Shown here: in pieces, positions 1,226-41,404 of the stretch
Numbering within the stretch: position 1 is the stretch's first letter
Layout: the number at the start of each line of letters is the position of its first letter
Source: a virus
Taxonomy: Duplodnaviria > Caudoviricetes
IMG/VR virus record: IMGVR_UViG_3300009678_000031
Coordinates: 1-41,874 of that record
Length of the DNA stretch: 41,874 nucleotides
Direction: 5' to 3' (one strand)
The notes under the pieces: model-generated
Told to the model about the DNA's origin: nothing
Seen by the model: the letters and a program-made list of their open reading frames with translations, nothing else
Database searches by the model: none
Translations under genes and position numbers: made by a program

Positions 1226-1536
1226 AGTATAAGGCGATCATCACCCGCGTGGCCGACGGCGAGATCGGTGAGTACAAACCAGATTGGGACTACGAGGTCA
1301 CGGAGGATGGGTTCTCGAACGAGTACATCTGGAGCGAAGGAAACTTCAGTTGCGACTGCAACCGCATGATGTTTTTCCATGAAGCCCGGGGAGAGGAGTA
1401 CCCCGTCGAAAAATTTGAGGATATAAAGTGCAGCAACGGTAAGTTTCATGTGCGCTGCGTTGATGTGGATACCGGAGCGGTGCTCTACGACGACGACAAT
1501 CCCAACATGGTCTACACCGGGAGGGATTCTACGTAA
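1222..1536 (+). CDS. Cys-motif phage protein (WSEGNFSCDCNR)
   Basis: ATG at 1222 overlaps the previous stop; the CDC motif suggests metal binding. Confidence 0.75.
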   Translation: MKYKAIITRVADGEIGEYKPDWDYEVTEDGFSNEYIWSEGNFSCDCNRMMFFHEARGEEYPVEKFEDIKCSNGKFHVRCVDVDTGAVLYDDDNPNMVYTGRDST

Positions 1537-1567
1537 AAGCAAAACGGCCCCGGTTTCCCAGGGCCGT
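1535..1567 (-). terminator. Intrinsic terminator of the late operon at the convergence point
   Basis: Minus strand ACGGCCCTGG-GAAA-CCGGGGCCGT followed by TTTGCTTTT. Confidence 0.8.
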
Positions 1568-1627
1568 CTCACTTGGAAAGGAAGAAGAAGCCAGACCGAC
1601 GAAATCTAGCTCCGTTCTCGCTCTCTG

Positions 1628-29327: not shown

Positions 29328-29699
29328 GTGAACCTCGAGATCCCGGACAAGTGGGGGAATGCCCACCTACTCCCCGAGCTCGACTTGTCGCCGTGGCGAC
29401 ACCCGATCGACCAGGATGTCTACGTGGCGACCTTGTGGTCGCGGTGTGAGCGCTGCCAGCAAGGCTTCCACTTCCCAATGATCCTTATTGGTCGCGAGCT
29501 ACGCGAGTACGGCCTCAAGTGCGGGGAGAGCGCGTACGCCAAGCTGGTCGAGATCCAGTTTTGGAGTCTGCGACGGAACTTTGAGACCTTCCTCTTCAAC
29601 TACCCATGCGACCGGGCGCTACAGCGCCGGCTCGCGAAGCACAAGATGAAGCAGATGCGGAAAATTCACGGCCGGAATTACGATCCGTACGATTTTTAA
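29328..29699 (+). CDS. Hypothetical protein with CxxC
   Basis: Likely GTG start after GGAG; last gene before the large non-coding region. Confidence 0.6.
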   Translation: MNLEIPDKWGNAHLLPELDLSPWRHPIDQDVYVATLWSRCERCQQGFHFPMILIGRELREYGLKCGESAYAKLVEIQFWSLRRNFETFLFNYPCDRALQRRLAKHKMKQMRKIHGRNYDPYDF

Positions 29700-30340
29700 A
29701 AAAATTTCTCACTTGACAGATCCCCCCTTCTCCCCTCACACTCCCCTCATCCCCCAGCGGGCCGACAGGCCCGCACCCACCTTCGGTGGATTCGACCGAA
29801 GAGTCGAATCCACCTCAGATAGAGTCGAACCCAGGATGGGTTCGACACGTGAATCCGCCGGAAGGCGGATTCACATTATGTGATTTTTTTTTTTTTTACT
29901 ACTCCTACCGGCTGAAAGCCGGATTTCCTCAAAAACTCCCGTAGGCCATGCGAACCAGGAGCGAATAGCGACTGTGAGCATGAAACTCAGTAATAAGTTC
30001 TCATATTACGGACAACTTGATTGCTAATTTCCACGGTAGGCCACCTGCTACGCAGGCCCCCAATCCCTACCCTCTTGTCAACTAATCAGGGATGCAAATG
30101 ATGGGTACTTCATGCGCTCGCTTCGCGAGCTTATTGCGTGTATATCATAGCCTTAGATCCCCTGACCGGAGGGAAGGGAGACGGAAGGTTATTACCTACA
30201 CCAATCTCCTCTACCCAATCCCCTCCTCCCTCCCGGATACATCATAGCGGAGCACATCCGCTATGTCGGATAGAGCCCTTCCCATCCATAATCCCCCGGA
30301 TTAAAGGACCAATGTGGCCGCACCTGGAGTGCGGCCTTTC
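29700..30340. other. Non-coding hairpin cluster A (putative origin/ssDNA signal or genome-end region)
   Basis: At least ten short palindromes (e.g. 29785-29814, 29824-29846, 29849-29874, 29908-29922, 30116-30130, 30243-30265), a T14 run at 29884-29897 and four C-runs at 29722-29755; no credible ORF. Confidence 0.65.
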
Positions 30341-37627: not shown

Positions 37628-37677
37628 AGGAAAAGTATTGTCTTTTCCTTGACAAAAGGTGTGAATAGAAGTATCAT
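37628..37677 (+). promoter_or_regulatory. Sigma70-type promoter P3 with an inverted repeat abutting the -35
   Basis: TTGACA (37649-37654), 17 nt, TATCAT (37672-37677); AGGAAAAG-N6-CTTTTCCT at 37628-37649. Confidence 0.8.
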
Positions 37678-38352: not shown

Positions 38353-38599
38353 ATTTGTGCCCAATCTGCCGTCTCCTCGCGCGACGCGCTCGAAGATCTA
38401 CCGTTTCATTATGGAGATCCAGAAGCGTCCCGGGGAGTGGGCAGAGTACGACACGGAACGGCTGTCGCGCTTCTCGCGCGCGACTTTGCCCGATGAGTTT
38501 CGCGAGAACATCGACATCCGCAACGTGAAGAACGAGGCGGGCTACTACACCACCTATTTACTTTGGAAGGGAACCAATGGACAACAAGTTGACGTATGA
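38336..38599 (+). CDS. Small phage protein, PG.WA family, paralog 2 (87 aa)
   Basis: RPGEWAEY and TYLLWKG align with the product of 27798-28037. Confidence 0.72.
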   Translation: MKTDVKFVPNLPSPRATRSKIYRFIMEIQKRPGEWAEYDTERLSRFSRATLPDEFRENIDIRNVKNEAGYYTTYLLWKGTNGQQVDV

Positions 38600-39329
38600 C
38601 CAGGGGTACGATTCAAAGCTCAACGCCGAGTTCGTGACCGACCTGATCGCGGCGCACAAGGAATTCAAACCCGCGGTGCGAGATGCCGCCAACGAGTTCT
38701 TCGATTCGAAGTACGTGACCCTCGATGGTGCGTGGGATGCCGTCAAGGATGCGCTGTTCGCGCACAACCTGATGGTGATTCAAACCGTGCAGATCGACTC
38801 ACAGATCGGGCCCGTCTTGATGACGGAGCTACTGCACAAGAACGGCGTACATCGTGTGAGCCTATACCCGATTCGTCCTGCGAAGGAAGGCGACCCCCAG
38901 GCGTTCGCGTCCTGCACGACGTATGCACGCCGCTACGGACTCATGGGTATCGCGATGATCTGCCCCGAGGATGATGACGGGAATGCCGCCGCGGCCGGCT
39001 CCGGTACGAAGGCCGCGGCCCCGCGTGCGGCGAAGCCGACGGGCTCCGCGAACACGGGCACACCCGTGCAGGTCGTGAGCGCGGTGACCGAAACGAAGAT
39101 GAGCAAGGCGGGAAAGCCGTACACGCAGCACACGATCGCGTTCTCGGACGGGACCGAGTGGAAGACGTTCGATGGCGGGCTCAAGGCAATGGCCGAGAGT
39201 GCCAAGAACCTAAAGATTGCGGTCACGTACGAGACGCAGAAGGAAGGTAAATACACCAACCTCACCGCGGTCAACAGCGCGGGCGAGGGCGTGGTCGAGG
39301 TCGATAGCGCCGCAGATCTCCCGTTCTAA
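38577..39329 (+). CDS. erf: ERF-family ssDNA annealing protein with a C-terminal OB-like domain and acidic DLPF tail
   Basis: N.FF.SKY..L, LLHKNG, DPQAFASCTTYARRYGL and EDDDGN motifs; ends DSAADLPF. Confidence 0.9.
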   Translation: MDNKLTYDQGYDSKLNAEFVTDLIAAHKEFKPAVRDAANEFFDSKYVTLDGAWDAVKDALFAHNLMVIQTVQIDSQIGPVLMTELLHKNGVHRVSLYPIRPAKEGDPQAFASCTTYARRYGLMGIAMICPEDDDGNAAAAGSGTKAAAPRAAKPTGSANTGTPVQVVSAVTETKMSKAGKPYTQHTIAFSDGTEWKTFDGGLKAMAESAKNLKIAVTYETQKEGKYTNLTAVNSAGEGVVEVDSAADLPF

Positions 39330-39334
39330 GGAAG

Positions 39335-39457
39335 CGTGTGTGGCCGCCTGGAAAGACAGGGGTGTGTTCGAGCACCACCCTCCTAGTGCGCTCGCGTGCG
39401 GAATGTACAACCGACCTGCGGTAGAGGGCGAGCTGGTGAAATACCAGCCCACACACG
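39335..39457 (+). ncRNA. Putative tRNA-like structured RNA upstream of tRNA-Asn
   Basis: Terminal stem CGUGUGUGG/CCACACACG, T-arm-like GCUGG-UGAAAUA-CCAGC stacked directly on it, and three further internal stems. Confidence 0.6.
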
Positions 39458-39467
39458 AACAGAAAAT

Positions 39468-39542
39468 TGTGGGGTAGTTCAGCGGCAGAACGCCGCGCTG
39501 TTAACGCGGATGTCGCAGGTTCGAGTCCTGCCCCCACAGCCA
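39468..39542 (+). tRNA. tRNA-Asn (anticodon GUU)
   Basis: Acceptor TGTGGGG/CCCCACA, D-arm GTTC/GAAC, anticodon arm CCGCG-CTGTTAA-CGCGG, T-arm GCAGG-TTCGAGT-CCTGC, G discriminator and encoded CCA. Confidence 0.96.
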
Positions 39543-39552
39543 AGTAAATATT

Positions 39553-39843
39553 ATGAGTGAAAAACTGTATCCAGTTGGACGAGGCAAGATGCGCGCGGCA
39601 ACGCGCGACAAGAACGGATTTCTGACCATCATCAACCCGGATGATGTCGAGGAAGTCACGGCGTACTACGAAGCCACGCTGGAGTTTGAGCGCCAGCGGA
39701 TGCAGGACTTCTCGATGAGCTTTACGCGGTGGCAGCGAGACTATTTCGTGCTCCTGCGCGAAGTGCAGAATCTCAACCGGAAAGTCCAGCGCATGAAGAA
39801 CGCCAACGCGCGACTGCGCAGAAAAAAGGAGGAACCTTTATGA
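39553..39843 (+). CDS. Hypothetical coiled-coil protein (96 aa)
   Basis: C-terminal heptads; follows the tRNA. Confidence 0.65.
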   Translation: MSEKLYPVGRGKMRAATRDKNGFLTIINPDDVEEVTAYYEATLEFERQRMQDFSMSFTRWQRDYFVLLREVQNLNRKVQRMKNANARLRRKKEEPL

Positions 39844-39872: not shown

Positions 39873-40058
39873 GTGGGCACGCAGATCAGAAAGTCTGGCC
39901 GGAAGAACCGCAAGCATGGTCGGAACAAAGTGAAGTGTAATCGGTACGCGCAGGAAGGCCGGCGCGAGAAAAACAAGAAGCGGCGGGCGGCGAAGATCGC
40001 TCGTCGCCGGAACAAGAAAGAAGGAGAACATGAGCATGAAGCGACTAGAGCCTGGTAA
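39873..40058 (+). CDS. Very basic small protein (61 aa)
   Basis: Strong RBS AAAGGAGG before GTG; dominated by Lys/Arg. Confidence 0.7.
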   Translation: MGTQIRKSGRKNRKHGRNKVKCNRYAQEGRREKNKKRRAAKIARRRNKKEGEHEHEATRAW

Positions 40059-41198: not shown

Positions 41199-41404
41199 TG
41201 GAGAAGAATTGCCCGACATGCGGGACGCTGACAACCGAAGTCGATGAGCACTCGTGCTGCGAGGTTTTGTCCTCACGTCTCGCCCAGAGAGAAAAGGAAC
41301 TTCAAGAAGCGAGGGAGATCATGCGCCGGGTGTCAGATTGGGACAGGCGAACGGTTGACGACTGGGACAGGCTGAACGCCTTCCTCAAGAAAGCCGGTGA
41401 TTGA
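41195..41404 (+). CDS. Hypothetical protein (CxxC plus coiled coil, 69 aa)
   Basis: ATGA coupling. Confidence 0.65.
   Translation: MMEKNCPTCGTLTTEVDEHSCCEVLSSRLAQREKELQEAREIMRRVSDWDRRTVDDWDRLNAFLKKAGD

Follow-up and report, generated by a model that had tools for sequence, protein, structure and literature searches.

Stable tRNA-like RNAs of phages

The closest described counterparts of the RNA analyzed here are small stable RNAs of the phages T4 and T5. In GenBank, T4 RNAC and RNAD appear as small stable RNAs within the tRNA cluster, and the T5 record (NC_005859) contains two misc_RNA features, RNA1 and RNA2, described as "tRNA-like stable RNA with unknown functions". RNAC has been seen on Northern blots (PMC9697503) and is conserved, with a cover of at least 80% in 728 phage records. 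When folded, RNAC, RNA1 and RNA2 present a frame made of an acceptor stem and a T arm round non-decoding arms, with no encoded CCA, and the inner arms of RNAC show paired changes between T4 and the Enterobacter phage PG7. The PG7 homologue (L160:600-746, plus strand) is partly annotated as tRNA-Met. The T4 and T5 tRNA-like stable RNAs have been annotated for decades and their function is still unexplained. Rfam and ARAGORN miss such RNAs; an Rfam search with T4 RNAC and T5 RNA1 and RNA2 gave no match at E values up to 0.1. We also came across unannotated tRNA-framed RNAs of 146–150 nt in two cultured Ackermannviridae-type phages (L417:2302-2447 and L418:2426-2575, both on the plus strand), where they are overlapped by predicted hypothetical ORFs.

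Similar frames are found beyond these phages. YrlA is a tRNA-like RNA of bacteria, and the CI RNA of phage P4 is a tRNA-like antisense RNA processed by RNase P. C4 RNA and tmRNA are tRNA-like RNase P substrates or mimics (PMC11143913), as is proposed here for the element described below.

Genome context of the element

The stretch of DNA that was analyzed (the window) is a complete phage genome of 41,874 bp with an 86-nt terminal repeat. The terminase, portal and major head genes are found on the minus strand, while the plus strand carries a helicase-like gene, a RadC-like gene, an HTH regulator, erf and rusA. In the databases this phage stands isolated: the C-terminal part of its Erf matched only itself among 50 candidates, and eight capsid relatives were found, at 34–74%. 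Its DNA was detected in groundwater and freshwater-sediment sequencing runs, and a contig from a separate study (run X2, record 11) spans positions 38966-39735 with no differences, which rules out an assembly artefact. The genome has a single tRNA gene, a tRNA-Asn(GTT), and the initial annotation had placed a tRNA-like element of ~123 nt at 10 nt upstream of it, a placement that our analysis confirmed (Table 1). The element starts 5 nt past the erf stop (39329) and occupies 123 of the 138 nt of the erf-to-tRNA-Asn gap, in a dense gene region. No terminator-like site was found on the plus strand from the sigma-70-like promoter to position 41251, which suggests one early transcript, and the element is likely co-transcribed from this promoter with the early genes.

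Among the 59 ORFs scanned there was no tRNA-acting enzyme and no defence-related family. A remnant of an attachment site was considered and discarded, since no integrase was found among the ORFs scanned and the likeness to tRNA spans both strands of the stem. Two other regions of the genome deserve mention. Downstream of the helicase-like gene, positions 29690-30140 contain no ORF of 60 aa or more and have inverted repeats and a T-run, making this region a candidate replication origin or control region. The other is an ORF of 61 aa (39873-40058, plus strand) located 330 nt past the tRNA, very rich in Arg and Lys and preceded by a strong ribosome-binding site; it had no PHROG or Pfam match, and its composition would be consistent with a possible nucleic-acid-binding protein.

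Table 1. Coordinates of the element, its parts and its neighbors in the window.
Feature	Position	Strand	Basis or remarks
Sigma-70-like promoter, likely source of the early transcript including the element	37649..37677	+	consensus match only, 11/12
Erf-family ssDNA annealing protein gene	38577..39329	+	PF04404, E 9e-15
Whole tRNA-framed element, five-way junction, 123 nt	39335..39457	+	predicted fold, descriptor
Acceptor-like stem, 5' strand	39335..39343	+	T39337 is position 1 if the stem is read as 7 bp, G39336 is then G-1
Arm 1 (D-arm position), 4 bp, 6-nt loop GAAAGA, not preceded by U8	39347..39360	+	fold; pair probability 0.99–1.0
Arm 2 (anticodon-arm position), 5 bp, 6-nt loop GTTCGA	39361..39376	+	fold
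Arm 3 (variable-arm position), 51 nt, firm base helix, upper fold uncertain	39378..39428	+	fold
T-arm-like hairpin, 5 bp, loop TGAAATA, stacked directly on the terminal stem	39432..39448	+	fold
Acceptor-like stem, 3' strand	39449..39457	+	C39456 (position 73) pairs with G-1; not followed by CCA
A-rich 10-nt spacer, doubling as 5' leader of tRNA-Asn	39458..39467	+	sequence
tRNA-Asn(GTT), CCA encoded	39468..39542	+	RF00005, 70.1 bits

Predicted fold

The frame that had been proposed at the outset, a terminal stem with a 5-bp arm and a 7-nt loop stacked on it, was recovered in full, and the nine pairs of the terminal stem (39335-39343/39449-39457) are all Watson-Crick. Between the two strands the order is arm 1, arm 2, one A, arm 3, three nucleotides and the T-like arm. 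The minimum free energy of the element is -55.7 kcal/mol (z = -3.57, one of 200 shuffles being equally good). Within three longer transcript contexts, pair probabilities were 0.98–1.0 for the T arm, arm 1 and the base of arm 3, 0.89–1.0 for the terminal stem and 0.81–0.84 for arm 2. The open T-loop is our own reading, as RNAfold narrows the seven nucleotides to a 3-nt loop. The inner arms CCTG-GAAAGA-CAGG and GGTGT-GTTCGA-GCACC are as given in the initial annotation, but its branched third domain did not hold: the prediction for arm 3 is one irregular hairpin with no branch (-17.9), the most stable branched form reaching -15.0.

A strict descriptor of the acceptor stem and T arm, which was composed after the element had been seen, found two sites in the whole 41.9-kb genome, i.e., the element and the tRNA-Asn. 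By chance, 0.01 sites per shuffled genome were expected (200 shuffles), or 0.11 if one G-U is allowed per stem, and when the 138-nt gap was shuffled 20000 times, the strict version fitted only 2 of the results. The tRNA-framed element is real and non-random. It is likely a non-coding RNA gene and, in our judgment, probably a functional RNA under selection. Three ORFs of 80–90 aa cross it, none of them with a Pfam match.

The canonical features of a tRNA that are present include a 7-bp acceptor on a 5-bp T stem, the 7-nt loop, U54 and A58. Absent are U8 (position 8 is C), the D-loop G18-G19 (the loop of arm 1 being GAAAGA) and U55-C56, where the TGAAATA loop has G55 and A56. The T stem has 5 bp and the acceptor can be read as 7, 8 or 9 bp for the comparison with the 8/4 or 9/3 branches of allo-tRNAs and the 8/5 branch of tRNA-Sec. 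The sequence and a scan for anticodon loops agreed with the earlier observation that CCA and anticodon are missing: for a 7-nt loop with U33 on a 5-bp stem there were no candidates at one mismatch or less and four at two mismatches. A weak register, TT-CGA-GC, can be found in arm 2, with 3 of 5 pairs. The D and anticodon arms had been described as replaced; the inner arms occupy the D, anticodon and variable positions of a class II cloverleaf, so that "degenerate and expanded" describes them equally well.

ARAGORN made no tRNA or tmRNA call on the element, and an Rfam scan at E values up to 10 gave no match, including ribozymes and tRNA-Sec (RF01852). Since RNAC, RNA1 and RNA2 do not match Rfam either, the missing match says nothing about the novelty of this kind of RNA. 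The element differs from tmRNA, YrlA and the C4/CI RNAs. A G3-U70 acceptor pair, along with a tag reading frame, is the rule in tmRNA, whereas pair 3:70 of the element is T-A. Neither a match to YrlA (RF02553) in Rfam nor a Ro60 family among the 59 ORFs scanned was found. For the C4/CI class there was again no Rfam match and no antisense target, the longest reverse-complement matches to the phage being three 11-mers, which is at chance level (about one expected per strand).

Relation to the neighboring tRNA-Asn

We counted the likeness between the two genes over 12 stem positions, which is the fair number because pairing makes the two strands interdependent. The element matches the neighboring tRNA-Asn at 10 of the 12, while the best among the top halves of 81 other phage tRNAs from the fetched loci reached 9, and nine other phage tRNA-Asn genes matched the element at 4–8 positions. 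A position-frequency model, derived from a small and phage-biased tRNA set, gave a P of 3e-4 for at least 10 matches of 12. The inner part of the element has no likeness to tRNA-Asn (p = 0.75). All 14 stem pairs of the element are Watson-Crick. The two differences from tRNA-Asn each alter a pair on both sides, one pair per stem, as had been noticed before. The word "compensatory" that was applied to them refers to a comparison of two neighboring paralogues, with no family alignment, and is not to be taken as family covariation. The two double changes suggest a helix kept under selection, and the likeness indicates that the frame probably descends from the neighboring tRNA-Asn gene or a close relative; the derivation from the tRNA, only a possibility in the initial annotation, now looks likely.

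Search for homologues and look-alikes in other phages

Homologues of the element were searched for along several routes. In viral contigs the exact T arm was found in eight stretches, one of them tRNA-like (L003) and none a homologue. A two-motif pattern gave ~140 stretches, and among the 120 viewed the frame was found only in L051 (the same gene as L003); a further two-motif pattern gave no homologue among 18. Three loci with Erf relatives (40–41%) had no tRNA, and the RusA route gave 0 of 28. For the eight loci of capsid relatives, a one-sequence model of the element (R1) had no match on five records; two more were included in a 41-record R1 search and L159 was left out. That search returned four weak matches, each at the T-arm pattern by which the record had been selected. 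Metagenomes provided two stretches, the window's own sequence (L161) and a TetR gene, and no homologue. In genomes the capsid route gave 0 of 43, and a similar pattern with CCA had 13 matches in bacterial genomes, with no 5-bp T stem and no real case among them. Searches of annotated phages and plasmids gave short chance matches only. As motif scans need exact motifs and R1 was built from one sequence, a diverged homologue can be missed by them. No homologue having been found, there is no family covariation. Among the results listed from the literature covered, mostly outside subscription journals and without the original T4 and T5 RNA papers, there was no paper on the element or on mimics with a TGAAATA loop.

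Scans with the T-arm pattern did reveal three other phage RNAs with a TGAAATA loop, a 7-bp acceptor, an encoded CCA and no normal anticodon arm. One scan, covering 37 of the 64 parts of the collection, had at least 120 matches and four that passed the acceptor filter, from which we kept L242 (identical to L003) and L273 and dropped L166 and L216. The other had 101 matches, 44 with a 5-bp stem and seven distinct ones with an acceptor candidate; here L341/L364 and L343 (identical to L273) were kept. Candidates L311, L312, L331, L377 and L379 were rejected as mimics for being extended hairpins or weak folds. L153, a 108-nt frame in a capsid relative, was rejected because it runs antisense across two ORFs.

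The RNA of L364 (1427-1529, plus strand; identical in L341) has 103 nt and a five-way junction, ends in ACCA (z = -3.98) and has a promoter-like site, read by eye, ~115 nt upstream. The 51-kb phage record that contains it has no tRNA match, so that it stands alone. That of L273 (197-325, plus strand) is also five-way, with 129 nt, ends in GCCA and is located 12 nt after a tRNA-Ser(TGA) (z = -2.49). The third, L003:1455-1528 (plus strand), is a 74-nt cloverleaf whose loop at the anticodon position has 6 nt (z = -4.05). ARAGORN called none of the three, and the Rfam scan of L273 and L364 gave no match. Both L364 and L273 share the order of the element, i.e., arm 1, arm 2, a single A, a long arm 3 and a short linker ending in A. 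However, all three look-alikes end in CCA, unlike the element, and their inner arms do not align with it (R1 scores of 15–23 bits). They were selected by the T-arm pattern, and the TGAAATA cap is common outside tRNA-like RNAs, with a full 5-bp stem in 10 of 31 distinct 20-mers from the second of these scans, most of them without an acceptor partner. For these reasons we regard the look-alikes as analogues until shown otherwise. That the element, L364/L341, L273 and L003 form one undescribed, phage-restricted class of mimics with a TGAAATA T-loop, born repeatedly from the phages' own tRNA genes, retaining the acceptor/T helix, having given up anticodon and standard elbow and offering a large variable-position arm as bait to defence nucleases that cut there, is an idea to which we give little credence. 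If it were true, this 42-kb phage, with a single tRNA and a single mimic, would offer the simplest setting for studying the role of T4 RNAC and T5 RNA1 and RNA2.

Several loci met in these scans are unusual in their own right. The L003 gene and the one next to it (1534-1602, plus strand) are adjacent tRNA-like genes in the tRNA array of a 218-kb jumbo phage; both have TGAAA T-loops, G73 followed by CCA and abnormal anticodon arms, lack the D-loop GG and are missed by ARAGORN. In L085:528-2231 (plus strand), the tRNA array of a 238-kb phage, five T-loops start with TG rather than TT; G55 thus also occurs on phage tRNAs that otherwise look normal. The same array contains a multi-arm frame of 123 nt that ends in ACCA, at position 1098. 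A structured stretch with an 8-bp hairpin capped by TGAAATA, found at L304:1490-1599 (minus strand) and at ~20 similar loci, recurs in many related viral contigs; the L304 locus had no Rfam match at an E value of 0.05.

Proposed mechanism and alternative explanations

Our preferred explanation, which we put forward tentatively, is that the element gives rise to a host-processed, non-decoding, tRNA-framed RNA that may serve as a decoy for host proteins reading the top half or the variable-arm face of tRNA. The tRNA-Asn gene or a close relative would have been duplicated, its stems kept and its inner arms rebuilt. Once co-transcribed with the early genes, the element would have its short 3' trailer freed for trimming by the RNase P cut before tRNA-Asn, while its 5' end would come from another cut, made just ahead of T39337 or, in the manner of tRNA-His and tRNA-Sec, just ahead of G39336. 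In these two tRNAs a G-1:C73 pair moves RNase P cleavage by one base, a shift that is helped by U at position -2, where the element has C (PMC5499578). RNAs inserted in a tRNA scaffold are processed and protected in E. coli (PMC3401473), and the CCA encoded by the look-alikes argues that such frames are processed as free RNAs. Easy processing is opposed by the lack of CCA and of the elbow pair G19-C56, which is read by RNase P and many proteins (PMC4810234) and cannot form as such because position 56 is A and the loop of arm 1 has no U. We consider it rather likely that the element is a processed free RNA.

The non-decoding product might then act as a sink that draws off defence enzymes or toxins attacking tRNA. 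That this is its job is a guess, and one about which we are doubtful. The variable arm is where Septu and retron-Eco7 cleave tRNA-Tyr, such nucleases are weakened by extra tRNA, and a phage tRNA "may act as a decoy or supplement" (PMC13096335). Without an anticodon, the RNA cannot stand in for a cut host tRNA, and variable-arm nucleases sensitive to extra tRNA exist, which is why we prefer the decoy. A decoy for anticodon nucleases is unlikely, the anticodon loop being absent. Should RNAs of this kind be decoys, they would represent an RNA-only form of counter-defence.

The tRNA frame could alternatively be a scaffold for processing and stability, the working part being a cargo (arm 3, or arms 1 and 2) that binds a protein or RNA of the phage or host. 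This would be the natural counterpart of the tRNA-scaffold method (PMC3401473) and would explain why look-alikes share the frame while their inner arms vary in length and sequence, and T4 RNAC does keep its inner arms by paired changes. We consider it unlikely for our element, in which the upper fold of arm 3 is ambiguous, complementarity to the phage does not go beyond chance 11-mers and no RNA-binding partner gene was identified among the ORFs scanned. A functionless, decaying duplicate of the tRNA gene would account for the stems resembling the neighboring tRNA-Asn, for the lack of homologues in our searches, for the loss of U8, D-loop GG, TTC and the 7-nt anticodon loop and for the weak register left in arm 2. 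Decay, however, should break stems, and those of the element are perfect and differ by double changes only; moreover, it folds better than the tRNA itself (z of -3.57 vs. -2.02) and takes up nearly the whole gap in a region where genes are dense. A pseudo-tRNA is, in our opinion, improbable. The element might also act in cis in the early mRNA, like the t-elements of plant mitochondria, which are mimics of the acceptor and T arm without an anticodon arm (PMC5499578), either as a signal for an RNase P cut or, uncut, as a shield for the 3' end of erf after removal of tRNA-Asn. Its start just past the erf stop, the lack of CCA and an altered T-loop that may resist RNase P point in this direction. 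Against it, a cut only 10 nt away is already provided by tRNA-Asn, the look-alikes L364 and L273 have CCA ends and the record of L364 contains no tRNA match; we see a cis-acting signal as improbable too.

An even less probable explanation is a charged, non-decoding tRNA to which CCA is added and which is aminoacylated by HisRS, through G-1:C73, or by SerRS, through an 8-bp stem, a G discriminator and a long variable arm, and then binds EF-Tu or donates its amino acid. Both readings rely on known anticodon-independent identity elements (PMC5389517; PMC7609411), and irregular G-1 tRNAs charged by HisRS without decoding have been described (PMC5389517). The 3' end would, however, have to be trimmed exactly out of a paired stem before CCA addition. 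Besides, the look-alikes have A73 or G73, so that the C73 identity is not shared, and the 59 ORFs scanned did not include an amino-acid transferase. Finally, we find it extremely unlikely that the element is an HDV-like (theta-type) self-cleaving ribozyme, a double pseudoknot with P1, P1.1, P2, P3 and J4/2 as consensus parts. Theta ribozymes are associated with tRNAs in phages, the tRNA being within 5 nt of the cleavage site (PMC10879173), and a loose descriptor does fit the element with four deviations, a fit equalled by only 2 of 1000 shuffles. Nevertheless, the tolerance was chosen after the pattern had been seen and there is no fit at 0–3 deviations. The P3 obtained has 3 bp with a central C-C mismatch, and forcing the nested parts gives -25.4 or -37.3 instead of -55.7, a cost of 18–30 kcal/mol. 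None of the Rfam ribozymes matched, even with E values up to 10 allowed, and the cut would fall at the 5' end of the element, ~130 nt from the tRNA. The complete set of intact P1, P1.1, P2, P3 and J4/2 with a tRNA within 5 nt is not found here.

Comparison with known systems

Some likeness exists to allo-tRNAs and other irregular tRNAs, to tRNA-Sec and to tRNA-His, in the long arm at the variable position and the possible 8-bp acceptor with G-1:C73 (PMC5389517). Five-stem junctions have been reported for the inactive allo-tRNA(UAU) (Mukai et al., PMC5389517), whose figures S5-S6 contain five-stem and irregular tRNAs. However, the allo-tRNAs described there have 8/4 or 9/3 branches and anticodons, whereas the element can be read as 7/5 to 9/5 and has no anticodon loop; nor did the Rfam scan give a match to tRNA-Sec.

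The initial annotation had considered the element an undescribed kind of phage tRNA mimic. This cannot be maintained, since T4 RNAC and T5 RNA1 and RNA2 share the frame. The element has the traits of these RNAs, i.e., a tRNA neighbor on the same strand, the size, the frame, non-decoding arms and no CCA. The present case is a singleton from an uncultured phage. No homology in sequence to RNAC, RNA1 or RNA2 was found, R1 giving no full match on L133, L160 and L163 and blastn against phages none. It has the same design as the T4 and T5 RNAs and is not a sequence member of their families.

T5 RNA1 and RNA2 resemble the element in their length (120–145 nt), their position amid tRNA genes, the acceptor stacked on the T arm and the presence of several inner arms, and RNA2, with 125 nt, also has a five-way junction. 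They differ in having canonical TTC T-loops and in belonging to a large tRNA cluster instead of accompanying the one tRNA of a 42-kb phage, and the long arm is the second in RNA2 and the third in the element. T4 RNAC (species 1 RNA) has 139 nt, is found in a tRNA cluster and has a T arm, an imperfect acceptor frame, an arm with a 6-nt loop and no CCA, although its T-loop is canonical and its inner arms are two; RNAD (species 2) shows no such frame in its minimum free energy fold. The kind of RNA is known, and what is new in the element is the TGAAATA loop and its occurrence in a small phage with a single tRNA gene, where the same design is found next to that tRNA and the link between both is visible.
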